NCBI GenBank assembly: GCA_023957375.1
Contig: JAMLHB010000003.1
Coordinates: 5,830-69,829 of the forward strand
Direction of reading: 5' to 3'
Length of the DNA stretch: 64,000 nt
DNA from: Flavobacteriales bacterium
Lineage (GTDB): Bacteria > Bacteroidota > Bacteroidia > Flavobacteriales_F > PHOS-HE28
Shown: positions 489 through 19,077 of the stretch, in pieces
Numbering within the stretch: position 1 is the first letter of the stretch
Layout of the letters: each line of letters opens with the position of its first letter
Made by a program: the position numbers and the translations under genes
The notes under the pieces: generated by a model
What the model was told of the DNA's origin: nothing
Seen by the model: only the letters and a program-made list of their open reading frames with translations
The model's database searches: none

Positions 489-3362
489 ATGCTTCGGAAA
501 ATACGCCTGTTCCTGTTGGCATTGCCATTGGCAACTGTTCCGCGGATTTCCTTGGCCCAGAACTTCAATTTCACCAGCGGCCCCATTCCGCTGTGCGACA
601 CCACCTACTTCACGGCCACGGTAAGCGGCATTGGCGCGCTGGTGTATCCGGGCAGCTTCTCCGACGGCTACTACCTGAGTGATGTGTGGCTGAACATCAC
701 CACCAACCACCCGCAAACCCTGCAGATCTTTTTAACCTCACCCAACGGCTTCGTGCTGCTGCTTTCGCAGTTCAATGGGGCGGGCGGGCAGAACTACACG
801 GACACCCACTTCAACGGCTGGCAGAACATCACCACTGGAACAGCACCCTTTACGGGCAGTTTCCTGCCCCAAGGCGGCTCTGACCTAGGCAACTACTTCG
901 CTGGTTGGAGCGGGGACGGTATCTGGACCCTGACGGTGATTGACACGGCTTGCGCCAATGGGGGTACCGGCCCAGACGGAGATTGGGTACCTGGCTCTTT
1001 CGGTGGTGGTGGCGGTGGCGGTGGTGGGCCCACTGGAGGAGCTGGCATGGGGTTTGGCTACAACATTGGCAACCCATGGGTTCATTTGCCGGATGTTACA
1101 GTCTACCTCTGTCCGGGCGGAAGTGTGGATATTCTGGGGTATTATTGGGAGAGTGTATATATTGGTGGTGTATTAGGGACCCCTGATCCACCAAACCCGA
1201 ATGCCGTGACCACCCCTGGGACGTATGGCGTCGTCGGCTCTCACTGGGATCAGAACTTCATCATCAATTCATACCCTGCAGATCCGCTTGGCCCGGACCA
1301 ATCCGTGGTGCAATGCGACCTTTCCGTTCCGGTGAATCTTGCCGCCCTCTTCCAGGTGACGGACTTAACCTTGACTTGGAGCTTTAACGGATCCCCAATC
1401 CCAGCTTCCACAGCCGTCTCCGCTACCAATGCCGGCGTGTACCAAGTGATCGGGCAGAACGCGAACGGTTGCAACGACACGGCCTTGGTCACCCTTGCTA
1501 ATGGAAGTGATTTTTTGGGCGCCGATCAATCGCTAAACATTTGCAACGGATCAAGCACGGACCTCACCACCTTGTTCCCCACTTCCGGGGCCACGGAAAC
1601 GTGGTTCTTCGGGGGCACCTCCATTCCTGCGCCTACTGCAGCAAGCAACCCAGGCACCTACACCTTGGTCGCAACGGCGGCATCGGGCTGCGCCGATACG
1701 GCTGAGGTGGTGCTGAACGCGCTGCCCGCCGTGGCCTTGGGCGCCGATCAAGCAGCCACGCTGTGCAGCAATGCAACCGTTGACCTTGCAGCGCTGTTCA
1801 CAACAACCGGCCTTTCCTCCGCATGGACCTTGAACAATGCAACTGTTCCAGACCCCACAGCCGTGGATACGGCTGGCCTTTACACCTTGGTAGCCACGAA
1901 CGGTTCCGGATGTTCAGACACTGCACAGGTGACCCTTGTTTCTGCCGCAGCCCCGGTGCTCGGGCCGGATGCAGCGCAAGCAACCTGCGAAGGCAACACT
2001 GTGGACCTGACAGCGAGCTTCAACCCGGCAGGTCTTACCACGGCATGGACACTGTCCGGTGCGGCAGTACCTGACCCCACTGCCGTTGGCGCCACCGGGC
2101 TTTACACATTGGTGGCCACCAATGCCGCTGGCTGCAGCGACACGGCCCAAGTAGCTGTGACGATCAACCCGGACCCGGTGTTGGGCGCCGACCAATCCAT
2201 CACCGCGTGCACCGGCCATCCCGTGAACTTGGGCAGCCTCTACGATACCGCCCCGCATGTTGCCGTATGGACGGTCAACGGCACGCCCGTTCCGGATCCG
2301 GCAGCGGTAACCAATGCGGGAAGCTATTTGCTCACCGTCACTTCATCGGAAGGATGCTCCGCAACGGCCACCGTGGACCTGGCCTTTGTGCCTGCGCCGG
2401 ACCTCGGCGCGGACATGGCCTTGACCATCTGCGCGGACAGCATGATCGACCTGGCCACCTTGTACCCCACCACAGGGCTTTCCGCCACGTGGACCCAGGG
2501 GAGCGCGCTGGTGACATACGCATCTGGCGTGGCGCTGCCGGGCATGTACCAGCTGGTAGTTTCCAATGGGGCATGCACCGATACGGCCAAAGTGGTGCTC
2601 ACGGTCAATCCGAACCCTTCCCTTGGCGAGGACCAACCCTTCACGCTGTGCCCCTGGCAAACGGTGAATTTGGGCACCTTGTTCCCAACGGACGGGCTCA
2701 GCACGGCCTTCACATTGAACGGCGTGCCCGTGGCCAACCCTGATTCCGTGCATGCGGCGGGGGTGTATGCCGTAACGGCCACGAACGCTGCGGGATGCAG
2801 TGACGTGGCAAACGCCATCATCACCAACATGGATTGCCTCTGCGAAGCGGACTTCCAAACGGATGCGCTTTGCTTGCAGGAACCTGCGCAGTTCACGCTG
2901 ATCGCGGATTCCACCGTGCAAGCCGTACACTGGGATTTTGGCGGTGCTGCAACTGCTTCCACGGAGCTGAACCCCGAAGTGCATTTTGAGGCGGGCCAGG
3001 ACGTGCCCGTCACCCTGCAAGCCACGCTCAGTTGCGGCGTGGTCACCGTGGAGCACATCGTACACGTCGAGGACTGCTCACAGAGCTGCCACCTGTGGTT
3101 TCCCAACTCCTTCACACCGGACAAGGACGACAAGAACGACATGTGGAACTGGGCCGGTGATTGCACCCCTGATCCGTACAAGCTGATGATCTTCAACCGC
3201 TGGGGCGAACTCATCTTCTCCACCACCGATCCGCATGATGCGTGGGACGGCACCTACGGCGGTGTGCCCTCGCCCATCGGCGTGTACGTGTACAAGGCCG
3301 AATACCAGTTTCCCTACCAGGATGCGCAGACGGCCATTGGCCATATCACGCTGGTGAGGTAA
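489..3362 (+). CDS. Large secreted T9SS cargo protein: signal peptide, proprotein-convertase P-domain-like region, poly-Gly linker, ~10 tandem Cys-containing Ig-like repeats, T9SS type-B C-terminal domain
   Basis: N-terminal signal peptide. Residues ~50-165 fit the P-domain pattern (IFLTSPNGF...WSGDGIWTLTVID). A G9 linker follows. The C-terminus HLWFPNSFTPDKDDKNDMW...YKLMIFNRWGELIF...GVYVYKAEYQF matches the gliding-motility-associated C-terminal (type B) sorting domain. Confidence 0.8.
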   Translation: MLRKIRLFLLALPLATVPRISLAQNFNFTSGPIPLCDTTYFTATVSGIGALVYPGSFSDGYYLSDVWLNITTNHPQTLQIFLTSPNGFVLLLSQFNGAGGQNYTDTHFNGWQNITTGTAPFTGSFLPQGGSDLGNYFAGWSGDGIWTLTVIDTACANGGTGPDGDWVPGSFGGGGGGGGGPTGGAGMGFGYNIGNPWVHLPDVTVYLCPGGSVDILGYYWESVYIGGVLGTPDPPNPNAVTTPGTYGVVGSHWDQNFIINSYPADPLGPDQSVVQCDLSVPVNLAALFQVTDLTLTWSFNGSPIPASTAVSATNAGVYQVIGQNANGCNDTALVTLANGSDFLGADQSLNICNGSSTDLTTLFPTSGATETWFFGGTSIPAPTAASNPGTYTLVATAASGCADTAEVVLNALPAVALGADQAATLCSNATVDLAALFTTTGLSSAWTLNNATVPDPTAVDTAGLYTLVATNGSGCSDTAQVTLVSAAAPVLGPDAAQATCEGNTVDLTASFNPAGLTTAWTLSGAAVPDPTAVGATGLYTLVATNAAGCSDTAQVAVTINPDPVLGADQSITACTGHPVNLGSLYDTAPHVAVWTVNGTPVPDPAAVTNAGSYLLTVTSSEGCSATATVDLAFVPAPDLGADMALTICADSMIDLATLYPTTGLSATWTQGSALVTYASGVALPGMYQLVVSNGACTDTAKVVLTVNPNPSLGEDQPFTLCPWQTVNLGTLFPTDGLSTAFTLNGVPVANPDSVHAAGVYAVTATNAAGCSDVANAIITNMDCLCEADFQTDALCLQEPAQFTLIADSTVQAVHWDFGGAATASTELNPEVHFEAGQDVPVTLQATLSCGVVTVEHIVHVEDCSQSCHLWFPNSFTPDKDDKNDMWNWAGDCTPDPYKLMIFNRWGELIFSTTDPHDAWDGTYGGVPSPIGVYVYKAEYQFPYQDAQTAIGHITLVR
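1269..2826 (+). repeat. Intragenic tandem repeats, ~10 copies of ~235-245 bp (~80 aa units)
   Basis: The protein shows a recurring unit LGADQ...C.G..VDL..L....GL...W.LNG..VPDP.AV...G.Y.LVATN..GCSDTA.V.L. The DNA copies are diverged but clearly related. Confidence 0.75.
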
Positions 3363-3373
3363 CGCGATCACGC

Positions 3374-3516
3374 TCGCCCGCGTTTGCAACGCGGGCGCAT
3401 CACCCCGGTCGTTTGCAACGATCAACCCTGATCCAGCCTCACGGTCCGCCAGGCCATTGTTGCGATGAGCGCGCTGCAAGCGCCTTGATCTTCGCCCGCG
3501 TTGCAAACGCGGGCGA
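3374..3516. terminator. Pair of REP-like GC-rich palindromic hairpins downstream of the T9SS gene, with a smaller related hairpin between them
   Basis: 3375-3397 is cgcccgcg-tttgcaa-cgcgggcg and 3492-3516 is tcgcccgcg-ttgcaaa-cgcgggcga (same element, loop inverted). 3409-3421 is tcgtt-tgc-aacga, sharing the GTTTGCAAC core. The first hairpin starts 13 nt after the stop codon. Confidence 0.5.
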
Positions 3517-3666
3517 GTGGGATTTCCTTGGTGCGCGCCCAGCGTTTGGCCACGGGAAGGCACCACTGCTGGGCAACCAGAAGGCATATTCCAAGTAAAG
3601 AGTTCATCGGTGAAGATAGGCTGCACTGCGGCCTATTTGCTTTGTGCCCGAAGCCAATTTCGAGAT

Positions 3667-3942
3667 ATGCGGATCCTGAAGGCCACCTACAATGAACTCC
3701 TTGGACGAGACGAGTGGATCATCAAGCGCAAAGCGATCATACAACGCGATGGAGGAGCTTGCCGCAACTGTGGATCAAGGGACCACCTTCAAGTTCATCA
3801 TCGGCAATATCACAAATGCCCAAAAACCGGATACAAAGTCGCGCCATGGTGCTATGCGGATCAATACCTGATCACGCTGTGCAACAATTGCCACAAACAA
3901 GGTCACCACGTTCATCACGTCCCCTGCTTCACAGTTAAATGA
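3667..3942 (+). CDS. Small HNH endonuclease (92 aa)
   Basis: MRILKATYNELL...CRNCGSRDHLQVHH...LCNNCHKQGHH is a Cys-box/HNH motif. Its stop TGA (3940-3942) overlaps the next ATG (3939-3941). Confidence 0.7.
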   Translation: MRILKATYNELLGRDEWIIKRKAIIQRDGGACRNCGSRDHLQVHHRQYHKCPKTGYKVAPWCYADQYLITLCNNCHKQGHHVHHVPCFTVK

Positions 3943-4532
3943 TCTTTAAACCCCCTGTTGCCATGAGCTTCATGAGCCGTATCTTCCAAAGAGCAGAAAA
4001 GGACACCGCCACTAAGGTGGCTGTAGCACCAGTTGATTTGGCGAATCCCACCACAACCCTCGTGGAACAGGAACTTTTTATTGACCGGGAACCACCCAGC
4101 CCCACCAAGGAATCCATGCGGACCCTCACCCGATTGGAGGAATTGGCCAGCACTGACCACCGAGAAGCGGGTCGCTTGGATGGGTTCACCTATCATGACA
4201 TGACGATTTGTGGCCAAGGGATAGAGCGGATCAAAGCCGAAATTCGCTGTGCTCTGGAGCAGGAGGTGAATCGGATCGGTCGATTTGTTGACCTGTTGGA
4301 CGTGGAGATCCGAAAGATCCAGGACACCGGCAGCGCCAATTTACTTCTTGACCTTCAGGCCAATCGCGACCAAATGGAACGGGATCGCTATCGGCTGAAC
4401 GAACAGCAGATGCTGGTCGTGGGCAACTCAGGTCTTGCCGACCTCCCGACAACCACGTATGAAGCCGGATTCCGACAGGGATATCGGGAATACTTGGAAT
4501 CCATGAACTTCATCCTAAAATACCAGGGATGA
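3939..4532 (+). CDS. Hypothetical protein (197 aa), translationally coupled to flanking genes
   Basis: ATGA overlaps at both ends (3939-3942 and 4529-4532). No motif recognised. Lower GC than the flanks. Confidence 0.55.
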   Translation: MIFKPPVAMSFMSRIFQRAEKDTATKVAVAPVDLANPTTTLVEQELFIDREPPSPTKESMRTLTRLEELASTDHREAGRLDGFTYHDMTICGQGIERIKAEIRCALEQEVNRIGRFVDLLDVEIRKIQDTGSANLLLDLQANRDQMERDRYRLNEQQMLVVGNSGLADLPTTTYEAGFRQGYREYLESMNFILKYQG

Positions 4533-5527
4533 CCATGCTGCACTTCTTCTCCATCCTCACAGGCGACCGTTACGCGACAGTTGCCAAGCACGGCCCGGTC
4601 TCCCGAAGGAAGGTGATTGCCATGGGAAGTGGCCTTCTGTTGGTAACGGGATTGTGGTTCTTCATTGGTTTCAACCTTGGCATGAATGCATTCGGCATGA
4701 AACCATTCCCCGCCCTCGCGCTCGGAGCTTCAATGAGCGCGGTGGTCTTCTTGGTGGATCGCATGGTACTGCTCAGCAGTGGGAAGCACTGGGGCATTGT
4801 TGTCTCCCGGATAGCACTTGCACTATTGATGTCCTTCCTCGGTGGCATTGGCCTTGACCTGTACATTCTACGAGCTGAGATCGATCAGACGGTTGTGGGC
4901 ATGCACAGGGAGGCACAAGCCGAGATGGCGAGTTCACTTGCCATGGGTTATGCTGACAAGCAAAATGATCTCGCCTTGGTAGTTGAACATGCCCGCCAAG
5001 AGCTGGCTGCAGCTGAGGCAGCCTGGCTCAAAGAGTTGGATGGCACCGGTGGTACCGGCCGCTATGGTGCAGGAGCGGTAGCCCGTTCAAAGGAGCGACT
5101 GGTGCATGATCGAAAGGGGGCACTTGCTGATGCACAGCAACGCGCGGACCTGCTGTCCCAAAAGATCGCTGCTGAACAACTGGCAAGGACATCCACATTG
5201 GCCCAAGCACAACGCGCCACAGGTCTATTTGACCGCATCCACGCCATGAAGAACTATATTGCCACGGACCCCTTGGTGCGGATCGTTTATCTACTGCTCA
5301 CCTTGCTCTTGATCCTTGTGGAACTATCCCCGCTGGTGGTGAAGTACGGCTTTCCCACAACGGCGTACGAGCAAGGCATCGAAGCGGCGAACCACATGCA
5401 TTGCGAGCAGGTGAGGCTGTTGGCGCACAAACAGGAGCAATTCAATGCCCGGAGCGCTGCGATGTCCGTGGAAGAACTCCGCTCCCGGGCACGGTTGCAG
5501 GCCATAACAGAAGCATACCAAGGTTGA
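4529..5527 (+). CDS. Membrane protein with two N-terminal TM helices, a long coiled-coil and a C-terminal TM helix (DUF4407-like architecture)
   Basis: Hydrophobic segments VIAMGSGLLLVTGLWFFIGF and ALALGASMSAVVFLVDRMVLL, a long Ala/Gln/Glu-rich helical middle, and a C-terminal TM segment IVYLLLTLLLILVELSPLVV. Confidence 0.6.
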   Translation: MTMLHFFSILTGDRYATVAKHGPVSRRKVIAMGSGLLLVTGLWFFIGFNLGMNAFGMKPFPALALGASMSAVVFLVDRMVLLSSGKHWGIVVSRIALALLMSFLGGIGLDLYILRAEIDQTVVGMHREAQAEMASSLAMGYADKQNDLALVVEHARQELAAAEAAWLKELDGTGGTGRYGAGAVARSKERLVHDRKGALADAQQRADLLSQKIAAEQLARTSTLAQAQRATGLFDRIHAMKNYIATDPLVRIVYLLLTLLLILVELSPLVVKYGFPTTAYEQGIEAANHMHCEQVRLLAHKQEQFNARSAAMSVEELRSRARLQAITEAYQG

Positions 5528-5613
5528 ACTTATGTCAACAAGGAACGCCCGGACACCCCAGCTTATCCAGTGCCAAGTGCATCCCTTCTACCTTGGCTGA
5601 ACCAGTTGTTGCC

Positions 5614-6642
5614 ATGCCTGTCAATAAGCACGCCCTGATCCGCTACCAAACCTTGGACCGCTGCTTTGCAAGTCGCGGCAGGCAATACTTCTTGGATGAT
5701 CTGTTGGAGGCATGCAACGAAGCCCTATTCGAGTATGACAGCAACGCAAAGGGCATTTCCCGCAGGCAGCTCTTCGAGGACATCAAGTATATGGAAAGCG
5801 CCCAAGGGTGGTCCATCCCGCTTGAACGGATCAAGGAGGAAAACAATCGGACCTGGTACCGTTACGCAGAACCTGGTTTTTCCATCAACAAGCAGCCGAT
5901 CAACGTGGATGAAGCCGCCCTGCTCAAGGAAGCGTTGCTCACCATGGGCCGCTTCAAGGGCATGCCCCAGTTCCAATGGGTGAATGAGCTCATGGTCCGA
6001 TTGGAGGCCGGATTCGGATTGCGGCAAGGTGCGGCGCATGTCATCGAGTTCGAGGAGAACCCCTATTTGAAGGGAAGTGAGCAGATCACCCCACTCTTTC
6101 ACTTCATTCTGGGAAAGCAGGTCTTGGCTGTGGAATACCAGAGCTTTAAGCATCCTGCCCCAACTTCTCTCCGTTTCCATCCATATTACCTGAAGCAGTA
6201 CAACAACCGGTGGTTTATTCTTGGCTGGAATGAACTCCTGGGGCGGCTCACCAATTTGGCGCTGGACCGGATCCAATCGCTTCGCCCGGTGCAAGGGGAA
6301 TTCCTACCCAACAGCGCCATCGATTTCTCCGAATACTTTGAAGACGTGGTGGGAGTTACAGTGCCGGAAGGGTCCGTGGAAAACGTGGAACTTCTGGTCG
6401 GTGGATCGTTATGGCCCTACATCGAGACGAAACCTCTGCATGGGTCGCAAAAAGTGATCTCACGGGATGAGGCGGGTGTTCGGGTGAAGTTGCAGGTGAA
6501 ATTGAACCATGAACTAGTGGCGTTGATCCTTTCCTTCGGAAGTGATGTGGAAGTGCTAAAGCCACCCACGCTCAGGGCATCCATGGCAGACCATGCGAAG
6601 GCAGCTCAATGCCGTTACCAAAAGAGCAAAGACCATGAGTGA
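5614..6642 (+). CDS. WYL-domain transcriptional regulator (HTH-WYL-WCX, BrxR/CapW-like)
   Basis: The N-terminal HTH region runs from MPVNKHALIRYQTLDRCF. The WYL signature is FHPYYLKQYNNRWFILGWNELLGRLTNLALDRI. Its stop TGA 6640-6642 overlaps the ATG of the next gene at 6635. Confidence 0.75.
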   Translation: MPVNKHALIRYQTLDRCFASRGRQYFLDDLLEACNEALFEYDSNAKGISRRQLFEDIKYMESAQGWSIPLERIKEENNRTWYRYAEPGFSINKQPINVDEAALLKEALLTMGRFKGMPQFQWVNELMVRLEAGFGLRQGAAHVIEFEENPYLKGSEQITPLFHFILGKQVLAVEYQSFKHPAPTSLRFHPYYLKQYNNRWFILGWNELLGRLTNLALDRIQSLRPVQGEFLPNSAIDFSEYFEDVVGVTVPEGSVENVELLVGGSLWPYIETKPLHGSQKVISRDEAGVRVKLQVKLNHELVALILSFGSDVEVLKPPTLRASMADHAKAAQCRYQKSKDHE

Positions 6643-9256
6643 AGATGCACATACGGACGGGGTCTATCCGGCAAGGAATATCGGCACGGCAGCAACCTTG
6701 GTCCTGTTAGGGGCCAATCGCGCAATGACTGCGGAGGCCATTGCCGATCGCCTGCGCATTGAAGGGAGCACGGACGATCCATGTTCCGCTTCAGACGTGC
6801 TGGCATGGGCCAATCAGAAAGGCTACTTGAATGAGCAGGGGAAGATCTGGTTTAGCGGATTGAACGAAGCCTTGGTTCTGCGTAATGACTTTCGAGGTGC
6901 CCTATTCTGGAGCAATTGGAGTCGATCGTTCGGATATCAGCGCCTCGCCGCCGCTGCCGTGCTCAGCATCAGCCGGTTCTTGCAGACACACCCGGACCAC
7001 CCATCAACCGATTCCATGCGCCAGCTCCTTATGGCTGGCCTTCACCATGAGTCGCTCGCGCAGCTCTTACGCACGATCGGTGAAATTGCCGGTGCGCCCA
7101 ACCTTCCCGAACGGCTGGGGATTGCAGCCTGGTCCGAATTACGGATCCGGGACCTTGGCCGGCTCATTAGCGCACTGAGCCCAGGCGTAGGCTTCACGGG
7201 GGAACATTCTTTTTCCATTGGGGATGAGTGGTGGCAGTTTGCCCACGCCAAAAAGGTCGAAGGGCGGCGCGCAATTACGTTGAAAAAGGAAATCAGTTCG
7301 CTTCGACTTACCACCGACGAGTTCCCGTATGACCACTGGATACAACTGCGTGCACCTGGTCGGGAGTTCTTTTTTCCGGATGCGCAATTTGCCGCACCTG
7401 CCTTTTTGCACCATCGGTCTCTTGTGCTGCGGGACATCCGGGTCACCGGTTATTGTGCCGATGCGGATGAACGGGATGGACTACGGCTTATGCTGTCGGC
7501 ACAGGGTATCGAGCATGACCTCCATGTCAGAAACGGGCAGGGCGCCATCCCTCTCCCATCCACCCCGGGCACTTCAGTAGTGACCTGCCCGGTGGACGCT
7601 AAGAAAGCCCTGCTCTATGCCAAGGAGTTCTTACGCACTGCTACCCAACCCGGACACCGGCGACTTTTCCTGATCGCTCCAATAGCTTGTTTCCATGAAA
7701 TAAACGCTGAGTGGGATAAGGTGCGCAGGGAAATGGTGGAGCGGGATCTCTTGGATTGCATGTTGACACTCCCGCAGGTAGGAAAGCAGATGTCCGACCT
7801 CGGCATGTTCGTATTGGACAACAACAAGTGGGAGGATGCAAAGGGCCTGGTATTGTTCGGAGGTGGAACCAACAACATGAACATAACCAATCCCGACGAT
7901 CCAATAGTCCGTAAGTTGGATGGTCTGAAAACGTTCGCCTTCAGGATGTCCCTCCAAATGGCAGCACGGGATCGCAAAGGCGCCTGTACGTTGATCACGA
8001 ATGACATCATTCTAACCGATCCCAACTGCCGACTCGCTATAGCATATTGTTATCATCCATTTTCAGTGATAAGCAGTTCTTTCCCATGGGAGGAATTGAA
8101 GCAATTCAAGGAAGTTGGAAGTATCATGGACTTTTCGATCGGAGTCACAGTTGATGCCAATGGAGACATTACACGCGAAGGTGTGATCAAGGCGCTGCGG
8201 AAGGACATGGCCTTGCCGGAATACGTTCGACACGAATTGGCTGAACGATACATGGAACAACAGATGGAGAAGATCAGGACCTATAAGCCCCAATGGGGCT
8301 ACCCCGATGCATACATCCGGATCCCATCGATTGAAGCCCAACTTCGGAAAGTGGAGGGCCTCAAACGTTCATGGGGGCTTCTCCCCATGTCCGAGACGGA
8401 AGGTGTATCGGACGATTGGGTCGCCAACGTGGTGGACAACATCCTGTTGCGCAACGAGGACCCTGAGCAGTGCAAGCTGAACCTGGGTTACATCATTCGT
8501 GAGCTGCAGCGCGTGGAGCGTACCCGTGCCTTGGCCGATGCCGAGGAAGCCTACAAAGCCTACCGCCATGATCTGGGCAACATGACCGGCCGCGTCAGGG
8601 ACAGCATTTCACTCCTGAAAGGGCAAATGAAGAAGCCTGATGCATGGACGGCATTAGCCACGGATACGCATGGCCGCTTGGAGGGCACCCTTTCCACCCT
8701 CGATCATTACTTTGAAAAGATGAAAGGCCTACTCACCGATCAGGAAAAATGCTTCACCAATGAGCACTATTCCCTAACAGCAGTGGAGCTGTCGGATGTC
8801 CTGAACAATGTGATCGGCGGTTTTAAAGATCCCGATGTCCGGTTGGAATACCGGGGTGGCCCTGCCCAGGTATGGGCCGATCGGCAAAAGCTGGAGCAAC
8901 TGATCACCAACCTGGTGTTAAATGCGATCGGCCATGGCAAGGTAGCGGGCAGGGAATTGTGCATCGTTCTGGACCGCATGGATGAATGGGACCAAGACTG
9001 GGGCGAGCCAGGCAGCATACCGCTTTTCATTGGCAATAACGGCAAAGCCTTTGAGCAGAGCTTTGACGAATTGACCAAGCAAGGAAGGCGCTCCAAACAA
9101 AGCAAAGGTGAAGGCCTTGGCCTGTACTTGGCACGCAAATGGGCAAAGGGCATGGGCGGTGAACTGGAAATGGCAAATGGAACGTTTCCTGCTATTGATG
9201 ACATAAGTCCACCGCTTTCCGTCGGCTTCTTCCTCCACCTGCGACAGGTTGAATAA
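6635..9256 (+). CDS. Cytoplasmic histidine-kinase-like protein (873 aa): ~600 aa uncharacterised N-terminal region, putative H-box, C-terminal HATPase_c
   Basis: C-terminal N-box LITNLVLNAIGHG, G1 FIGNNGKAF and G2 GEGLGLYLARKWAKGMGGEL. Candidate H-box YRHDLGNMTG. No TM segments are evident. Lower GC than the flanks. Confidence 0.7.
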   Translation: MSEDAHTDGVYPARNIGTAATLVLLGANRAMTAEAIADRLRIEGSTDDPCSASDVLAWANQKGYLNEQGKIWFSGLNEALVLRNDFRGALFWSNWSRSFGYQRLAAAAVLSISRFLQTHPDHPSTDSMRQLLMAGLHHESLAQLLRTIGEIAGAPNLPERLGIAAWSELRIRDLGRLISALSPGVGFTGEHSFSIGDEWWQFAHAKKVEGRRAITLKKEISSLRLTTDEFPYDHWIQLRAPGREFFFPDAQFAAPAFLHHRSLVLRDIRVTGYCADADERDGLRLMLSAQGIEHDLHVRNGQGAIPLPSTPGTSVVTCPVDAKKALLYAKEFLRTATQPGHRRLFLIAPIACFHEINAEWDKVRREMVERDLLDCMLTLPQVGKQMSDLGMFVLDNNKWEDAKGLVLFGGGTNNMNITNPDDPIVRKLDGLKTFAFRMSLQMAARDRKGACTLITNDIILTDPNCRLAIAYCYHPFSVISSSFPWEELKQFKEVGSIMDFSIGVTVDANGDITREGVIKALRKDMALPEYVRHELAERYMEQQMEKIRTYKPQWGYPDAYIRIPSIEAQLRKVEGLKRSWGLLPMSETEGVSDDWVANVVDNILLRNEDPEQCKLNLGYIIRELQRVERTRALADAEEAYKAYRHDLGNMTGRVRDSISLLKGQMKKPDAWTALATDTHGRLEGTLSTLDHYFEKMKGLLTDQEKCFTNEHYSLTAVELSDVLNNVIGGFKDPDVRLEYRGGPAQVWADRQKLEQLITNLVLNAIGHGKVAGRELCIVLDRMDEWDQDWGEPGSIPLFIGNNGKAFEQSFDELTKQGRRSKQSKGEGLGLYLARKWAKGMGGELEMANGTFPAIDDISPPLSVGFFLHLRQVE

Positions 9257-9261
9257 AATCA

Positions 9262-10401
9262 ATGGACATGAAGATTCTACTGATCGATGACGAACCACAA
9301 GAACAGTTCCGCGCACTCGCGCAGGCGCAGGAAATTGAGATCTTGCATGAACCCGATCGCCACGTTGACGAGTGCTTGGAGTTCCTGCGGCGAGAATATT
9401 GGGATATCGATGCGGTGATCGTGGATGGCAGACTGGATCCCAACCAACAATTTCAAGGCTTGAGCCGAACGACCGGCCGCATCCAGGAATTGAACGGGAC
9501 AAACCATTGGTGGAAACCATTTTGCGTCTGGACCGGCTATGCAGAGGATATAAGGAACGTGGTGGACCAGCATATCCAGGTCTTCGATAAGGCAGATGGC
9601 GGGCAACCGGTCCTGGACTACCTCAAAGGCATCATTGAAGATCTTCCCGCATACAGGGTGAAGATGAAATTCAAAGATGCCTTGCAAGCTTGTGACACAG
9701 CAAAATTGACCCCTGACTCAAAGAACCACATCAACGCCATACTTCGGAACCTGTTCGGAAACAGCACGCTTGATGAAGATTACCCCAAGCATTTACGCAG
9801 CTGCCTTGAATCGATGTTCCGCTCCGCCCATGGTCTTGGGCTCGTGCATGAGAAGTGCATTGAGAAGAACAGGGTGAATCTTACTGCATGTTCCTTGTTC
9901 CTTAGTGGACATCCCGTAGAAAAGCTCAATGTGAAATGTACCAAGCGCCACGCGCCGGAACTGGTCGGGCAACACATACACCATATCCTCAATGTCACCA
10001 ATGCATTCAGCCACAGCGAAGACCCGATCAAGGGCAAGCTCAATGCATATCGTGAATGGATAAAAACACCCTATCTATTGTACAGCCTTACTTTCGAACT
10101 ACTGGATGTGTTGGTGTGGTACAAAGCGTATGCTGAGGCTCATCCAAACATAGAAGACAACAAGAAATTATGGGTGGTTGATTCCCAAGAGGCCGAAAAC
10201 ATCCAAATGATTCCGGGCGTGATTACATTCATCCACCCGCAAGGGTATGGATTTTTCAGTGCGAGCACGGATGGCTCCGAAGCTTATATCCCACACGATG
10301 TGGTATCCGCGAATGAGCTCATCCAGGGGATGAAGATCGAGGTGGCTACAGTAACAAAAGCTAAAGGTCCGGTGGTGAAGAAGCTCAGAATCCTGGATTG
10401 A
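9262..10401 (+). CDS. Response-regulator receiver protein with an unknown middle region and a C-terminal cold-shock (OB-fold nucleic-acid-binding) domain
   Basis: REC: MKILLIDDE...DAVIVDGRLDP...CVWTGY...FDKADG. C-terminus: GVITFIHPQGYGFFSASTDGSEAYIPHDVV...GMKIEVATVTKAKGPVVKKLRI, which resembles the CspA pattern G.V.WFN..KGFGFI...G.DVFVH.S.......G..V.F....G.KGP.A..V. Confidence 0.65.
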   Translation: MDMKILLIDDEPQEQFRALAQAQEIEILHEPDRHVDECLEFLRREYWDIDAVIVDGRLDPNQQFQGLSRTTGRIQELNGTNHWWKPFCVWTGYAEDIRNVVDQHIQVFDKADGGQPVLDYLKGIIEDLPAYRVKMKFKDALQACDTAKLTPDSKNHINAILRNLFGNSTLDEDYPKHLRSCLESMFRSAHGLGLVHEKCIEKNRVNLTACSLFLSGHPVEKLNVKCTKRHAPELVGQHIHHILNVTNAFSHSEDPIKGKLNAYREWIKTPYLLYSLTFELLDVLVWYKAYAEAHPNIEDNKKLWVVDSQEAENIQMIPGVITFIHPQGYGFFSASTDGSEAYIPHDVVSANELIQGMKIEVATVTKAKGPVVKKLRILD

Positions 10402-10879
10402 AGCGAATATTCGTTCCGTCCGCCTCAATCACCCTCTCCACCTGCTCGCGTGGGAACCCCTTCCCCACAAAATACCGCACCACCTTCTCACGGCGGATCC
10501 ATGGGTCGGTTTCCTGGGTGCGCTCCCAGCACTTGGCCACGGCCAATTTCAGTTGTTCGCTTTCCTCCTCCCCATCGATGGCCTTTAAGCCTGAGGTGAT
10601 GCAGCTTGCCGAAACTCCTTTGGCCTTCAGCGCCAGCTCTATCTTCCTGCGCCCCCATCCCTTCTGGCGGCTCTTGCTCACGGCGTAGTGCTCCGCGAAG
10701 CGCGCCTCGTTGAGGAAGCCCTCACTAATGAGCTGCGCAATGACCTGTTCCACATCTTCCTTGTGGCTGCCCCAGGCATAGAGCTTGTCGCGCACTTCCT
10801 GTTGGGCGCGTTCTTGGCGGGCGCAGTAGGCGCGGGCTTTGGAGAGCAACGCGGTCAACATGGTTGGAGGCATGGCCAC
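10385..10879 (-). CDS. recX: Recombination regulator RecX
   Basis: 164 aa with the RecX-like helical repeat pattern (ARAYCARQERAQQEVRDKL...VIAQLISEGFLNEARFAEHY). Its 3' end overlaps the island gene convergently by ~17 nt. Confidence 0.65.
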   Translation of the reverse strand: MAMPPTMLTALLSKARAYCARQERAQQEVRDKLYAWGSHKEDVEQVIAQLISEGFLNEARFAEHYAVSKSRQKGWGRRKIELALKAKGVSASCITSGLKAIDGEEESEQLKLAVAKCWERTQETDPWIRREKVVRYFVGKGFPREQVERVIEADGTNIRFNPGF

Positions 10880-10912
10880 GGTAGATCACAAATAACGGAG
10901 GCAAAGGTTTGA

Positions 10913-10977
10913 TTTGTCCGATGTCTTATGTCCTATGCGGTACGCAATCGCGCATAGGACATAAGACATCGGACAAA
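10913..10977. repeat. Perfect 27 bp inverted repeat (hairpin, 11 nt loop) between rng and recX
   Basis: 10913-10939 tttgtccgatgtcttatgtcctatgcg, loop gtacgcaatcg, and 10951-10977 cgcataggacataagacatcggacaaa, which is the exact reverse complement. Confidence 0.9.
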
Positions 10978-10998
10978 GGCAGTATCTCCGACCTCCCC

Positions 10999-12546
10999 CT
11001 ACACCGCCACCTCCTTGCCCTCGCCATCAAAGACATGGAACTCGAGGTAGCGGCTGGAACCTTGTGGCACCACCTTCACCCATTTCTTCCAGCGCCACCA
11101 CCACTTGTGCTGGATGCTGGGCAGCCCCTTTGTGAAGTAGGAGGCAACGAAGGGATGCACGTGCAGACTGAGGCCGCCCATGTCCTTCTCTGATAACAGG
11201 TAGTTGAGGGCGTTCTCGATCTCGTCCACGATGAGCACGGGGGCGCTCACCTCTCCGGTGCCGCCGCAGGTGGGGCAAGCTTCGCTGGTATCGATCTCGG
11301 TTTCGGGACGCACGCGCTGGCGCGTCATTTCGATCACTCCGAACTTGCTTGGCGGAAGCACGTTGTGCTTGGCCTTGTCGTCCTCCATGGCGTCCTTGAG
11401 CGCCTTGTGGAGGGTGCGGCGGTTCTCCGGCTCATACAGGTCGATGAAATCCACGCAGATGATGCCGCCCATGTCGCGCAGGCGCAGCAGGCGTGCGATC
11501 TCCTTGGCAGCCTCCACGTTGATGGCTAAGGCGTTGGTCTCCTGGTCGTTGCGCCCGCCCTTGCGGCTGCCGCTGTTCACGTCGATGACGTGCATGGCCT
11601 CCGTCTTCTCGATGATGAGATAGGCTCCGCTGGGCAGCATGACCTGCCTGCCGAAAGCTTGTTTGATCTGCTTGTTGATCCCGAAGTTGTCGAAGATGTC
11701 CAGCTTGCCCTTGTACAGTTTCACAATGCCCACGCGGTCCGGTGCGGTGCGTTCCAAGGTCTGGCGCACTTCCTCCAACACCTGTTCGTCGTCCACGATG
11801 ATGCTGGTGAACTCCTTGTTGAGCACATCGCGCAGCACCGCGCTGGTGCGGTCCACTTCGCCGAGCACCTGCTTGGGGGGCATGGCGTTGCGCAGGTTGC
11901 GGAACATCTGGTCCCAGCGCTGCAGCAAGTGCTTCAGGTCGGCCTCCAGGTCCTCGGTGCGGCGGCCCTCGGCATTGGTGCGGATGATGATGCCGAAGTT
12001 CTTCGGGCGGATCTCCTGCAGGAGGGCTTTGAGGCGCTTGCGCTCGGCCTCGTCGGTGAGGCGGCTGCTGATGTGCACCCGGTTGGTAAAGGGTACCAGC
12101 ACCATGTAGCGGCCCGGCAGGGTCACTTCGGCAGTGAGGCGCGGGCCTTTGGTGCTGATGGGCTCCTTGGCGATCTGCACCAGGATGCTCTGGCTGGCGC
12201 TGAGCACATCGGGCAGCTTACCCTCCTTGGGGATGTCGGGATCGATCTTCCAGTCGTCCAGCAGGGAAGTTTTCACCGTGCCGCTCACCGCTCCCTTGGC
12301 AAACTTGTAGCTGTTGCGGTACTGCGGCCCCAGGTCGTAGTAATGCAGGAAGGCATCCTTTTCATGGCCCACGTCCACGAAGGCGGCATTGAGCCCTGGC
12401 GCCACCTTTCGGACCTTGGCCAAGTAAATGTCGCCCACGGCAAAGCCACGCTCGGTCCGCTCGCGGTGCAACTCCATGAGGAGCTTGTCGCGCAATACGG
12501 CGATGGCCACTTCGCTCCCTTGGGAACGGATGATCAGGTCTACGCT
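10999..12546 (-). CDS. rng: Ribonuclease G (Rne/Rng family). Likely GTG start at 12546; the upstream in-frame extension to 12636 is not used.
   Basis: The N-terminus VDLIIRSQGSEVAIAVLRDKLLMELHRER and the S1 region GDIYLAKVRKVAPGLNAAFVDVGHEKDAFLH are diagnostic of RNase G/E. Confidence 0.85.
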   Translation of the reverse strand, partial: SVDLIIRSQGSEVAIAVLRDKLLMELHRERTERGFAVGDIYLAKVRKVAPGLNAAFVDVGHEKDAFLHYYDLGPQYRNSYKFAKGAVSGTVKTSLLDDWKIDPDIPKEGKLPDVLSASQSILVQIAKEPISTKGPRLTAEVTLPGRYMVLVPFTNRVHISSRLTDEAERKRLKALLQEIRPKNFGIIIRTNAEGRRTEDLEADLKHLLQRWDQMFRNLRNAMPPKQVLGEVDRTSAVLRDVLNKEFTSIIVDDEQVLEEVRQTLERTAPDRVGIVKLYKGKLDIFDNFGINKQIKQAFGRQVMLPSGAYLIIEKTEAMHVIDVNSGSRKGGRNDQETNALAINVEAAKEIARLLRLRDMGGIICVDFIDLYEPENRRTLHKALKDAMEDDKAKHNVLPPSKFGVIEMTRQRVRPETEIDTSEACPTCGGTGEVSAPVLIVDEIENALNYLLSEKDMGGLSLHVHPFVASYFTKGLPSIQHKWWWRWKKWVKVVPQGSSRYLEFHVFDGEGKEVAV

Positions 12547-15483: not shown

Positions 15484-17006
15484 GGAAGACCGGCATTCGG
15501 CCCGGCTACGGGCTGCTGCTCGCCTGCCTCTTCGTGCAGACCTCAAGCCAATTGGCTGCACAGGCCCGCAATTCCAACTGGATCTTTGCACCGGGCATTT
15601 GGCTGCATTTCGAGCCGGACACCATCCTTGCCTTTCCCATGGCCGACACGGTTTCCCTGCGGAATGCATCCATCAGCGATACCACGGGGCAATTCGCTCT
15701 GCTGGCCGATGATTTCGGCATCCGCAATGCGCTCTTTGAAACAGTCGCCGGGGGTAGTGCGGCCGAACTTGGCTGGAACGTGCCCGCCGCCAGTTATTTG
15801 ATCCTGCCCCTACCTGGACAAGCCGACCAATACGGGGTCTTCATCAATGAACGGCCACCCGGTTCCCGTGCCGGATTTGTGCAAGTGGACCTGGGCGCAA
15901 ACAATGGGGCCGGCACTGTGCTGGGGGGCACGACCTGGTACTTGGAGCATGCCACCGCCAAGCTTACGGCCACCACCGATTCCACCGAAACAGGCTATTG
16001 GATCCTGCAACATGACGAGTCAGGCGATGCATTCCGTGCATTCCACCTCACCGCTGCGGGCCTTGACCCGGCCCCGGTCATTTCCCACGTTGGCACGAGC
16101 TACCTGCCAGACACCTCACCGAAGGAAAACATTGACCGGTACGGGCAGATGAATTTCAATTTTCAGGGCGACCTGGTGGCGGCCATCAAAAACGGCCCAT
16201 CCATCGACACCAGCAAGGTGGAACTCTTCCGGTTCAACCGGGCCACCGGCGAGCTGCAAATGGAGGCGGAGGTCGGAGCGCTCTATTACGATGGCAATGC
16301 GGGGCCTGCGGGATTGCTGCAAGCCCTCCTGCAAGGCGTGGATTTCAGCCTGGGCGGGTCGTACATGGTTGTTGGGCATATTGACACGTTGTCCACCATG
16401 AACAACTCAAGGATCGTTCGGTATCCCCTTGGTGCACCATGGGACAGCCTGATCACTTCTTCAAGCTCATTGATCAATGGCGTTTCGGGCGATACCCTGC
16501 GGTATGACACCCGGTACGGAATTCAATTTGCCACTACACCCTATGGGAAAATATTGATCCGTCGGCCCTACCGCCCCGCAGACCTGATACTCAATTTCCA
16601 ACACATGTTCGAGATCGCGATCCCCGATCCGGGTCCATTCTCGGGCTGGACCTACTATGCCTTCGCGGGTATGCCTGTACCGGGAGGGTTCCCATCCCCG
16701 TGCAAGCGCTATGTGGATAGCACACCCCTGATCACCGGAATTGGCCAGTTGACCACCTTTCATACCGAGGTCGGCATTCGGCCCAATCCAATGGCCGACC
16801 AAGCTACCTTGTTCTATCGCGGTAATGACAGTCCAAAAAGCGTGGTGTGGCGGGATGCCTTGGGCCGCGAGGTACGCCGGACGACCTGGCGCATGGCCGG
16901 TTCCACCCATACGCTTGAGCGCAACGGGCTGCCCGCCGGGGTGTACTTTGTTGAAGTACTTGGCGAGCGGGGTGTGCTCGGCGCGGTAAAACTGTTCTGT
17001 GAATGA
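15474..17006 (+). CDS. Secreted hypothetical protein with T9SS type-A C-terminal sorting domain
   Basis: Signal peptide MFLRKTGIRPGYGLLLACLFVQTSSQLAAQA. The C-terminus IRPNPMADQATLFY...LPAGVYFVEVLGERGVLGAVKLF fits the Por_Secre_tail pattern. Confidence 0.65.
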   Translation: MFLRKTGIRPGYGLLLACLFVQTSSQLAAQARNSNWIFAPGIWLHFEPDTILAFPMADTVSLRNASISDTTGQFALLADDFGIRNALFETVAGGSAAELGWNVPAASYLILPLPGQADQYGVFINERPPGSRAGFVQVDLGANNGAGTVLGGTTWYLEHATAKLTATTDSTETGYWILQHDESGDAFRAFHLTAAGLDPAPVISHVGTSYLPDTSPKENIDRYGQMNFNFQGDLVAAIKNGPSIDTSKVELFRFNRATGELQMEAEVGALYYDGNAGPAGLLQALLQGVDFSLGGSYMVVGHIDTLSTMNNSRIVRYPLGAPWDSLITSSSSLINGVSGDTLRYDTRYGIQFATTPYGKILIRRPYRPADLILNFQHMFEIAIPDPGPFSGWTYYAFAGMPVPGGFPSPCKRYVDSTPLITGIGQLTTFHTEVGIRPNPMADQATLFYRGNDSPKSVVWRDALGREVRRTTWRMAGSTHTLERNGLPAGVYFVEVLGERGVLGAVKLFCE

Positions 17007-17085
17007 GCCGCTGCCGGAAACCGCAACAGCCACAGGACCGTATGTCGCCGCCCCACGGCAACTACCCCAAGCATACCTTGGCCGA

Positions 17086-19077
17086 ATGCGAAATCTTTGG
17101 TTATGCCTCCTGCTTGCACCCTTGCCTGCCATCGCCCAGGAATTTGCGCTAATGCCATGGCCCGCGCAAGTGGAACACCGGACCGGCCAGCTCACGTTCA
17201 GCGCCCCGTTGCAACCGCGGGTGGACGGGCCGGCAAGTGAACGCACCACCCGGGGATTGGAACGCTGGTCCATGCGACTGGCGGAAAAGGCCGGGCCCGC
17301 CGCCATGGGCGACAGCCGGAACGGAATGCCGGTGCTCATCCGTTACGAACGCGTGGCCGACTTGCGCACCCCGGACGTGGACGGCAGCTACGCACTGGCG
17401 ATAGACAGCACGGGAATCACTGTACAAGCCCCTACGGACATCGGTGTGCTGCACGCACTGGCCACCCTGTACCAATGTTTCCGCAGGGATGACGCGGGCT
17501 GGGGATTCCCCTCGTTGCGCATCACCGATGACCCGCGCTTCACCTGGCGCGGCCTGCTGATCGATCCCTGCCGCCACTTCATGCCCTTGGATGTGATCCT
17601 GCGCCAACTGGACGGCATGGAGCTGGTGAAGATGAACGTGCTGCATCTGCACCTCACCGAGGACCAAGGCTTCCGCATCGAAAGCAAACTGCTGCCGGAA
17701 CTCCACGAAAAAGGCAGCAACGGCCAGTACCTCAGCCAGGAAGACATCCGCAAGATCATCCGCGAAGCGGACCTGCGCGGCATCCGCGTGGTGCCCGAGT
17801 TCGACCTGCCCGGCCACGCCACCAGCTGGTTTGCCAGCCACCCCGAACTGGCCAGCGCGCCCGGCACCTACCAGCCCGACACGCGCTACGGTGTGCTGGA
17901 TGCCGTGTTCGACCCAACCAATGAAGCTACGTACGCCCTGCTGGACCGCTTCCTGGGTGAGATGGCCGCGCTCTTCCCCGACCCGTACTTGCACATCGGC
18001 GGCGATGAGAACAACGGCAAGCAGTGGGATGCCAACCCCGCCATCCAGGCCTTCATGAAAGCCCACAACCTGCCGGACAACCACGCCCTGCAGGCCTATT
18101 TCAACCAGCGGCTTTACGCGATCCTGAAAAAACACGGCAAGCGCATGATGGGCTGGGACGAGATCGGCGATGTGCCGGCGGGAAGCGCCCCTGCCTTGCC
18201 CCAGGATGTCACCATCCAAAGCTGGCGCGGCAAGGAAGGGCTGGTGAGCGCGGCGCATGCCGGGCGGGATGCCATCCTGAGCAACGGCTGGTACATCGAC
18301 CTGTGCCAAAGCGCGGAATTCCACTACCTCAACGACCCGCTCCCCCCGGACAGCCCGCTGAACGCGGAGGAACGCAAGCACGTGCTGGGCGGCGAGGCCA
18401 CCATGTGGGCCGAACTGGTGGACGCCCGCAACGTGGATACGCGGATCTGGCCGCGCGCCGCCGCAGTGGCGGAACGCCTGTGGAGCCCGGCCTCCGTAAA
18501 GGATGTGCCCGACATGTACCGGCGCATGGAGGCTGTCTCCAAACAGCTCGACGCCATCGGCCTGCGGCACAAAAGCGCCCAACTGGAACTGCTGCGCCTG
18601 ATGGCCGGCAGCGATGACGTGGCCGGCTTGAAAGGCTTGGTGGACGTGATGGCGCCCGTGCAGGGCTACAAGCGCCACCAGCTGGCCAAGCACACCACGC
18701 ACACGCCCCTCACCGGCTTGGCCGATGCCGCCGTGCCAGACCCCGAAGGCGCCCGCCGGTCCACGGCATTGATCGATGCGTTCATCACCCGGCGGGACGC
18801 CGCAACCGCAGCCGCGCTCAGACCCGTGCTGGAGGCCACCACCAACGCACCTGCCCTGCCCTGCTGCGGCACCGCCGCCGATGCCCGGAAAGTGTTGGTA
18901 AATGCTGCATTGGCGATCATGGACCACCTGCTGAAGAGCACTGCACCGGATGCCGGAGCTTGTAAAACGTTCCAGCTTGCCTTGGACCGGGCACAAAGCC
19001 CCATCCTGGAAGCGGAATTCGCAGACCTGCCCGCCTTCCAGCGGCTCTTCGCGGCGGCCTGCACCCCGGCAAAATGA
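17086..19077 (+). CDS. Beta-N-acetylhexosaminidase (GH20), secreted
   Basis: Signal peptide. GH20 motifs LLIDPCRHF, LHLHLTEDQGFRIE, HIGGDE and W..E. Confidence 0.85.
   Translation: MRNLWLCLLLAPLPAIAQEFALMPWPAQVEHRTGQLTFSAPLQPRVDGPASERTTRGLERWSMRLAEKAGPAAMGDSRNGMPVLIRYERVADLRTPDVDGSYALAIDSTGITVQAPTDIGVLHALATLYQCFRRDDAGWGFPSLRITDDPRFTWRGLLIDPCRHFMPLDVILRQLDGMELVKMNVLHLHLTEDQGFRIESKLLPELHEKGSNGQYLSQEDIRKIIREADLRGIRVVPEFDLPGHATSWFASHPELASAPGTYQPDTRYGVLDAVFDPTNEATYALLDRFLGEMAALFPDPYLHIGGDENNGKQWDANPAIQAFMKAHNLPDNHALQAYFNQRLYAILKKHGKRMMGWDEIGDVPAGSAPALPQDVTIQSWRGKEGLVSAAHAGRDAILSNGWYIDLCQSAEFHYLNDPLPPDSPLNAEERKHVLGGEATMWAELVDARNVDTRIWPRAAAVAERLWSPASVKDVPDMYRRMEAVSKQLDAIGLRHKSAQLELLRLMAGSDDVAGLKGLVDVMAPVQGYKRHQLAKHTTHTPLTGLADAAVPDPEGARRSTALIDAFITRRDAATAAALRPVLEATTNAPALPCCGTAADARKVLVNAALAIMDHLLKSTAPDAGACKTFQLALDRAQSPILEAEFADLPAFQRLFAAACTPAK

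Follow-up and report, generated by a model that had tools for sequence, protein, structure and literature searches.

Three linked genes of Bacteroidota

Three neighbouring genes in the genome of a Flavobacteriales bacterium (GCA_023957375.1), encoding a minimal HNH endonuclease, a protein here called A and a DUF4407 membrane protein here called B, form a conserved and strictly linked unit across the phylum Bacteroidota. They lie in a stretch of 64,000 nucleotides (nt) of contig JAMLHB010000003.1 (positions 5,830 to 69,829, forward strand), referred to as the window throughout; coordinates are those of the window unless a related locus is named. We tentatively read the trio as an unnamed three-gene conflict module of Bacteroidota, anti-phage or anti-plasmid, in which a membrane sensor would control the HNH nuclease, and as an analogue, not a homologue, of Zorya II. 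This reading as a whole is possible, in our judgement, though somewhat short of probable. What the trio does is, in every functional statement below, something that we infer.

An earlier note, made from the letters of the window, had described the genes as a translationally coupled three-gene operon at 3667-5527. The three open reading frames (ORFs) are indeed found there on the same strand, and the letters ATGA occur at both junctions, at 3939-3942 and at 4529-4532. The trio itself is conserved, but the transcription unit runs on past 5527, and the operon is accordingly larger than the note had drawn it.

Linkage was scored with an alignment of the HNH protein as probe against one genome per species, which gave 195 relatives in 185,579 species genomes. 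For the neighbourhood counts 80 of these loci were kept. In 74 of them at least 1.7 kb of DNA was available downstream of the HNH gene, and hidden Markov models of A and B were run against the translation of this DNA. Both an A-family gene and a DUF4407 gene were present downstream of HNH in 74/74 loci, in the order HNH-A-B in 71 and HNH-B-A in 3. The grouping that had been picked out in a single genome thus recurs wherever there is enough downstream DNA to see it. The hosts are nearly all Bacteroidota and include Flavobacteriales, Chitinophagales (Chitinophagaceae), Sphingobacteriales (Sphingobacteriaceae), Cytophagales and Bacteroidales, among the latter Alistipes and Rikenellaceae. The distribution is patchy, as the number of HNH matches among all species genomes indicates. 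In viral collections the module is essentially absent: a set of 2.9 M viral contigs yielded two distant solitary HNHs, and a set of 50,697 phage records yielded nothing. PLSDB contained one occurrence, with all three genes, on a 1.07 Mb Persicobacter replicon.

The HNH protein is the best conserved member of the trio

The HNH gene occupies 3667-3942 on the forward strand (ATG at 3667, stop codon TGA at 3940-3942) and encodes a protein of 91 amino acids (aa), predicted to be a minimal, zinc-binding endonuclease of the HNH (His-Me finger) type. None of the Pfam HNH models was matched at E ≤ 0.1, PADLOC gave no match of any kind at the same threshold, and phmmer against the PDB returned spurious matches only. 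Despite this, the protein matches phrog_119 at E=5.8e-11, at least eight PHROG HNH families were matched, and in NCBIfam a weak match to the HNH region of IscB was seen (E=0.0067). The pattern CxxC...HH...CxxCH, which is that of a zinc-stabilised His-Me finger, is kept.

Conservation was followed in 81 HNH sequences at 42-77% identity. Residues W17, R21, D28, C32, C35, the stretch LQVHHRQY (41-48), W61, Y63, C72, C75, H76, G79 and H80 are invariant or nearly so, R46 being present in 80 of the 81 sequences. This set includes the catalytic histidine and the zinc or metal ligands (H44, H45, C32, C35, C72, C75, H76, H80). The nuclease is intact in 81/81 sequences and is the best conserved member of the trio, A and B falling to 15-30% identity. 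In the closest relatives the HNH gene was missed by gene callers; tblastn placed it directly upstream of A in all of the first 14 loci, at 65-77% identity. The HNH protein would be the DNA-cutting effector of the module.

The HNH gene also holds a long open alternative frame (3714-3938). A database protein of 318 aa (P0021) was considered as an HNH-A fusion and set aside as an annotation artefact: its N-terminus is the alternative-frame translation of the HNH gene, read through into A.

Protein A forms a family of its own

Gene A was placed at 3963-4532 on the forward strand (stop codon 4530-4532), encoding a predicted cytoplasmic helical-hairpin protein of 189 aa. An alternative reading begins at the ATG at 3939 and gives 197 aa; this is the reading of the earlier note, in which the HNH stop codon overlaps the start of A. 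The overlapping letters exist at 3939-3942. However, the overlap is probably not the start that is used, because homologues of A all begin with an invariant MSF, corresponding to M9 of the window ORF (3963). The predicted start lies 20 nt past the HNH stop codon, and in relatives the gap is 17-24 nt.

Protein A had no match in Pfam, NCBIfam, PADLOC or the PHROGs, and profile searches of the PDB with A and with B gave coiled-coil noise only. Only five close homologues of A were found in an index of 5.8 billion proteins. An exhaustive profile search extended the family to 107 representatives of 50% clusters, nearly all of them stand-alone proteins of 175-200 aa. Judged by these searches, gene A forms a family of its own. 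In an AlphaFold (AF2) model the N-terminal ~60 residues, in which an ELFI(D/E) motif is conserved, are disordered; they are followed by a helical hairpin modelled with confidence (~88-161) and then by a C-terminal helix with a conserved GNSG...Y.xGF..GY motif. A may be an adaptor or an inhibitor.

B is a DUF4407 protein with four predicted transmembrane helices

Gene B (4529-5527, forward strand) encodes a predicted inner-membrane protein of 332 aa, made up of three transmembrane (TM) helices, a coiled-coil hairpin, a fourth TM helix and a C-terminal helical hairpin. The protein matches Pfam DUF4407 (PF14362) at E=3.7e-38 with 131.9 bits, against a cut-off of 31.3, over 8-294 of the 297 profile positions. 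The hydropathy of the family and the AlphaFold model (pLDDT, the predicted local distance difference test, 92.1; predicted template modelling score, pTM, 0.73) bear out the DUF4407-like architecture suggested in the earlier note, in which TM helices at the N-terminus are followed by a long coiled coil and a last TM segment. They do not bear out its count of two N-terminal TM helices and one C-terminal helix but give three and one, at ~23-54, 59-82, 88-113 and ~248-274. Between the third and fourth helices lies an antiparallel coiled-coil hairpin of ~115 residues (115-170 and 183-229), whose conserved Gly-rich tip reads E-x-D-G-[TS]-G-G-[ST]-G. The C-terminal helical hairpin spans 279-331.

W43, R94, E265 and K272 are invariant in the B family, and invariant charged residues (R94, D110, E265, K272) lie within the TM helices or at their ends. 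Topology and charge were analysed in 70 homologues. On average the N-terminus carries 4.3 and the TM2-TM3 loop 3.2 Lys and Arg residues, against 0.2 in the TM1-TM2 loop. By this measure the N-terminus and the TM2-TM3 loop of B are predicted to lie inside and the TM1-TM2 loop outside, a topology in which the coiled-coil hairpin would be periplasmic and the C-terminal hairpin cytoplasmic. No solved relative of B was found; Foldseek gave nothing at E<1e-3 and generic coiled-coil matches only, and PADLOC searches with B returned noise only.

Whatever the lineage, A and B are closely spaced; in the 72 loci measured the distance is mostly -4 to +18 nt. Here the earlier note had again read an ATGA overlap. 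The close juxtaposition is conserved, whereas the 4-nt overlap itself is not, and the better conserved start of B is M3 (4535), 2 nt past the stop codon of A. The stoichiometric complex that the note had deduced from this coupling would be a conclusion from gene spacing, with one of the two overlaps cited for it probably not a real start.

The DUF4407 proteins linked to the trio are a distinct subfamily, scoring at least 228 bits where other DUF4407 proteins score 114 bits or less. The more distant DUF4407 genes are often solitary and stand without an HNH gene. Among about 8 million searchable papers no function for DUF4407 was found; the term occurs in the main text of three, as an entry in gene tables or in unrelated contexts.

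Defence genes and a candidate operator near the trio

The flanks differ widely between trio loci. Neighbours were often defence-like or mobile (restriction-modification (RM) systems, reverse transcriptases (RTs), CRISPR-Cas; cassettes and islands), in keeping with the defence-island context whose absence the earlier note would have taken as a refutation. A type I RM, RT, cas or CRISPR cluster was present within 10 kb in 25 of the 80 loci, and in 18 of the 48 loci of at least 15 kb; these are raw counts and not a measure of enrichment, and they cover only the clusters annotated in this analysis. Recurrent neighbours, checked with Pfam on representatives, are type I RM, a reverse transcriptase with a partner, type III CRISPR-Cas, TPR-CHAT proteins with an extracytoplasmic function (ECF) sigma factor, and DUF4258. 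A TPR histidine kinase with a response regulator, sometimes together with a staphylococcal-type nuclease, also recurs. In two Belliella loci (L069, 16-9682; L072, 136-7389) the genes WYL-HNH-B-A stand between two long CRISPR-like arrays with a period of ~72 nt and up to 62 units.

Upstream of the HNH gene an operator-like palindrome with the consensus CTGTGMAGAT-NNN-CTGCACAG was found at 3608-3628 (forward strand), ~40 nt before the HNH ATG and followed by a promoter-like stretch containing TTTG. The palindrome is conserved in an alignment of the upstream regions. An exact copy occurs once per locus in 19 loci; the window has one copy with 2 mismatches, a level at which 14 of 100 shuffled sequences also give at least one match. 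A regulator with WYL and WCX domains is encoded next to the trio in 29 of the 80 loci, on either side, and in the loci examined the palindrome lies upstream of HNH whichever side the WYL gene stands on; it accompanies versions of the module that include a WYL gene. It is likely to be the operator of the WYL regulator, as far as its position and conservation can indicate.

The trio heads a cassette at the recX 3' end

In the window the trio comes first in a cassette of ~7 kb with six genes on the same strand separated by small gaps: HNH, A, B, WYL, a histidine kinase and a receiver/cold-shock domain (REC/CSD) protein. The six-gene set is conserved in loci L001, L003, L008, L016 and L020. The fourth gene (5614-6642, forward strand) encodes a transcription regulator of BrxR/CapW-like architecture with WYL and WCX domains (PF13280, 2.9e-10; PF25583, 8e-13; PADLOC WYL, 1.7e-25), in which no helix-turn-helix domain was matched by Pfam.

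The fifth gene (6593-9256, forward strand, start codon uncertain) encodes a cytoplasmic histidine-kinase-like protein of 887 aa with DHp and HATPase_c modules (HATPase_c, 4.1e-08). Its residues 600-836 match histidine kinase 7z8n in a profile comparison at 3.5e-08, and the ~600-aa N-terminal region ahead of the kinase module has a very weak likeness to the C-terminal part of type I methyltransferases. A methyltransferase-like region was not adopted, the values being too weak (3khk, E=0.052; hhalign probability 7.8%). The sixth gene (9262-10401, forward strand) encodes a protein of 379 aa whose N-terminus is receiver-like; a conserved middle domain follows (motifs DYPKHLR and HILxxTNxxSH), and the C-terminal domain is of the cold-shock/S1 kind. 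Its residues 317-377 match CspE 3i2z in a profile comparison (E=0.0016), and relatives carry a weak match to PF22707 S1CSD-TOTE-2; the receiver assignment is a reading of the motif KILLIDDE...VIVDG, Pfam giving no match. The 887-aa and 379-aa proteins would make an atypical two-component-like pair.

The site occupied by the cassette is the recX 3' end, with duplicated recX sequence on both sides of the cassette. An intact recX lies at 10385-10879 on the minus strand and was identified by 78% identity to a gene of L003 with RecX_HTH Pfam domains. The right direct repeat (10510-10542, minus strand) is inside this gene; the left one (3523-3555, minus strand) is a copy of the recX 3' end that has been displaced and has degenerated, 33 bp in blastn with 88% identity to the right repeat, and tblastn detected a weak remnant of the RecX C-terminus at ~3524-3574. 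Repeats derived from recX also flank the cassettes of L003 (118 bp at 83% identity with an 89-bp core at 90%, at 76-193 and 7076-7193) and L016 (138 bp at 96%, at 1496-1633 and 8485-8622). In L008 the repeats are derived from alaS (146 bp at 97%, at 8787-8932 and 17038-17183), and L020 and L068 have further direct repeats around the cassette. Similarity between repeat copies extends beyond the core at lower identity, as if the insert had brought a replacement gene end. Between the left repeat and the HNH gene downstream of it there are only ~90-250 nt in the window, L003, L008, L016, L020 and L068; in L032 and L075 the distance is no more than ~20 nt. The 94-bp repeat of L075 encloses nothing but the trio (2.3 kb). 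In L040 (Mucilaginibacter) the trio is part of a 16 kb island at tRNA-Lys(CTT), and the perfect 111-bp repeat at its two ends (1867-1977 and 18054-18164) takes in part of this tRNA gene.

No recombinase family was matched by any of the six cassette proteins of the window in Pfam, PADLOC or NCBIfam. Flanking direct repeats are also a feature of integrase-borne islands; a tyrosine or serine recombinase was not found among these proteins. An extra gene of 162 aa in L008 had no Pfam match. An empty or alternative alaS junction was looked for in two metagenome scans, which gave no match; as they also missed the source contig of L008, whose metagenome seems to be absent from the collection, this negative is uninformative.

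Between the last cassette gene and alaS, L008 has a repeat of ~120-150 nt (core CAGGGTCTCACGCAGTGGACCCTGTGGCC...; 16540-16950) in three or more copies arranged as if in tandem. In L067 and L087, which belong to lineages other than that of L008, alaS also adjoins the module, in the order A-B, an opposite-strand WYL gene and alaS, the module standing at the 5' side of alaS; this neighbourhood may be either a recurring association or old synteny.

An envelope-coupled nuclease as a tentative model

The trio is probably an anti-phage or anti-plasmid system, because its genes are always together, often stand beside defence genes and are carried on mobile cassettes. In the mechanism that we tentatively propose, transcription would start at the promoter with the palindromic operator upstream of HNH, under control of the WYL/WCX protein. 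B would be a four-TM, envelope-anchored sensor and scaffold of the inner membrane, with a hairpin of ~75 Å projecting into the periplasm and with its N-terminus, TM2-TM3 loop and C-terminal helical hairpin facing the cytoplasm. Cytoplasmic A, made in step with B, may tether or restrain the minimal HNH protein. A perturbation of the envelope or the entry of DNA, perceived by B, would release the nuclease or concentrate it at the membrane, where it could nick or cleave incoming or cellular DNA. In the lineage of the window, the histidine-kinase-like and REC-like/CSD proteins may add a second layer of input or output, and the whole unit would travel as the ~7 kb cassette inserted in the recX 3' end.

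Several results weigh against this model. A physical link among the three proteins was not seen, and the one candidate for a fusion (P0021) is an artefact. Protein A is poorly modelled as a whole (pLDDT 56.6). The predicted periplasmic position of the B coiled coil has the positive-inside rule as its single basis, and the charged TM residues of B would also fit an ion-conducting effector. None of the annotated defence clusters was present in 55 of the 80 loci, and the defence association as a whole is guilt by association.

The earlier note had favoured other roles, B as a membrane-disrupting effector of abortive infection and HNH as a partner in nuclease-based sensing or killing. In such a reversed arrangement B would be a membrane-depolarising or pore-forming killer, and HNH together with A a sensor of foreign DNA or a second effector. 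The invariant charged TM residues of B keep such a role open for it. However, the structural matches of B are to generic coiled coil and Foldseek found nothing at E<1e-3, a 91-aa HNH protein without an extra domain is an unlikely specific sensor, and the HNH protein is the most conserved component, which one would expect if it were an effector enzyme but not if it were a sensor. In addition, some DUF4407 proteins occur alone, without HNH. Since the hairpin of B is predicted to be periplasmic, a sensor or anchor fits the protein at least as well as a pore, and we regard the reversed arrangement as unlikely. A toxin-antitoxin-like addiction module that stabilises the cassette, with HNH as toxin, A as its putative inhibitor and B as accessory, would fit a small nuclease gene followed by a small partner gene on mobile cassettes. 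Toxin-antitoxin pairs do not, however, typically come with a third gene that encodes a conserved membrane protein, and no toxin-antitoxin family was matched in Pfam, PADLOC or NCBIfam; the prospect of this explanation is the faintest of those considered. Nor would the function have to be one of conflict at all. A coupling to envelope stress, or a part in DNA uptake or processing under two-component regulation, would agree with the signal-transduction genes around the trio (TPR histidine kinase and response regulator in 11 loci, ECF sigma/TPR/CHAT in 8, the 887-aa kinase and 379-aa protein in the window lineage) and with a DUF4407 gene listed in a PhoP-regulon table of Riemerella. A physiological role of this sort is nevertheless very improbable to us, given a distribution as patchy as 195 matches in 185,579 species genomes, cassettes and islands at varying sites whose flanks differ between relatives, and the frequent presence of RM, CRISPR or RT genes next to the trio.

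The insertion pattern raises a different alternative, in which HNH is a homing-type nuclease that cuts cassette-free recX or alaS 3' ends, repair then copying in the cassette with a replacement 3' end, and A and B are otherwise useful or cargo. Cassettes of 7-8 kb without a recognisable recombinase, duplications of 100-146 bp of the target 3' end at more than one site (recX for the window, L003 and L016; alaS for L008; further direct repeats in L020 and L068) and a left repeat close upstream of HNH in several loci, down to the L075 repeat that brackets the trio alone, all speak for it. Against it, HNH is always intact and accompanied by A and B in 74/74 loci, which does not suit the gain-decay cycle of homing genes; some trios reside in ordinary islands, such as the one of L040 at tRNA-Lys with its 111-bp repeat; and no empty site was recovered in the metagenome scans for the alaS junction, scans which also missed the source contig. 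A purely selfish role is disfavoured because the nuclease is universally intact and constantly found with A and B, and as an explanation of the trio it is rather improbable. The two ideas may also be joined: the trio would then provide a new kind of envelope-coupled immunity, the DUF4407 stalk spanning the periplasm, sensing phage or conjugative DNA entry from outside the cytoplasm and licensing HNH at the membrane via A, while the same HNH would drive a recombinase-independent, homing-like insertion of the cassette into recX or alaS 3' ends with duplications of 100-146 bp. To this combination, too, we give a small probability. If true, a single nuclease would act in defence and also move the cassette that encodes it.

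Relation to known systems

The view of the earlier note that the genes belong to no named system held in our searches, PADLOC giving nothing for HNH or A and noise for B, and literature keyword searches for a named Bacteroidota system of HNH and membrane protein found none. The nearest parallel is Zorya II, in which, once infection occurs, the soluble HNH nickase ZorE is recruited to the membrane by the membrane complex ZorAB (PMC11890865). Like the trio, Zorya II consists of three genes and combines a membrane complex that has a long coiled-coil element with a small soluble HNH protein. Unlike its counterpart, however, B is not MotA-like, the trio lacks a MotB-like peptidoglycan-binding partner, and the tail of ZorA is cytoplasmic whereas the hairpin of B is predicted to be periplasmic. 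The PADLOC models for ZorA and ZorB had no match among the window proteins and matched one of the 70 B homologues each, at E=0.002-0.008, which is noise; the ZorE model did not match the HNH protein at E ≤ 0.1.

Kiwa consists of the membrane sensor KwaA and the effector KwaB (DUF4868) and has no HNH protein. Like other membrane-anchored defences, it shares with the trio a multi-TM protein encoded beside a cytoplasmic, DNA-directed partner, but the trio has an HNH and no DUF4868, and neither PADLOC (KwaA, KwaB) nor Pfam gave a match. Septu, composed of the ATPase PtuA and the HNH protein PtuB, has no membrane component. There, as would be the case here, a small HNH depends on a partner protein, yet the trio has a membrane protein and no ABC/AAA ATPase, and PtuA and PtuB were not matched in PADLOC. 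Since the models of Zorya, Kiwa and Septu do not match, the relation is one of analogy and not of membership.

WYL proteins of the BrxR/CapW type are regulators of defence islands. The WYL+WCX protein encoded with the module and the palindromic site at the module promoter are reminiscent of them, although the WYL gene accompanies only 29 of the 80 trio loci. Organelle genomes are known to contain free-standing cassettes of homing endonucleases in which the invaded gene has its 3' end duplicated. The cassettes described here resemble these in the nuclease gene at the edge of the insert, the duplicated target 3' end and the missing recombinase; they differ in their size of 7-8 kb with five further conserved genes and in an HNH that is never alone or degenerate.

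The pairing of a membrane component with an HNH nuclease in multi-gene defence is already known, and what would be new is a trio that no named system matches. If the reading as an envelope-coupled conflict module is right, the trio would be a second, non-homologous case of the logic of a membrane complex and an HNH nuclease, after Zorya II. As a defence system it would be a Bacteroidota-centred addition to a catalogue built mostly from Proteobacteria and Firmicutes, from a phylum that is important in gut and environmental microbiomes. The strict partnership with an intact HNH provides a testable functional context for the widespread DUF4407 and for protein A. Cassettes that lack an integrase and duplicate 100-146 bp of the recX or alaS 3' end are an insertion pattern worth study in itself, and this pattern could be more novel than the trio as a defence module.

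An actinobacterial triplet in Geodermatophilus (L097, 3468-7332) has the same order of HNH (141 aa), middle gene (291 aa) and DUF4407 (443 aa), the middle gene running 4 nt into the last one, and adjoins a ScoMcrA-like type IV restriction gene and queuosine-precursor genes. The similarity of its HNH is only generic, and the middle protein, considered as a relative of A, showed no detectable relation to it (hhalign probability 0.1%); this single instance was counted as an architectural parallel only.

Further features of the window

Between recX and an RNase E/G-like gene, a near-perfect stem of ~27 bp is present at 10913-10977 (RNA fold of -61 kcal/mol over 116 nt, z=-9.3). A search of 3000-11500 with Rfam gave nothing but this hairpin, mis-scored as miRNA families; it is probably a terminator or an element like the repetitive extragenic palindromes (REP). 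On the other side of the cassette, 489-3362 encodes a secreted protein of 957 aa with many tandem repeats of ~75 aa (motif LG.DQ...C...V.L..LF), whose C-terminal domain, by reading of its residues, resembles a type IX secretion sorting domain.

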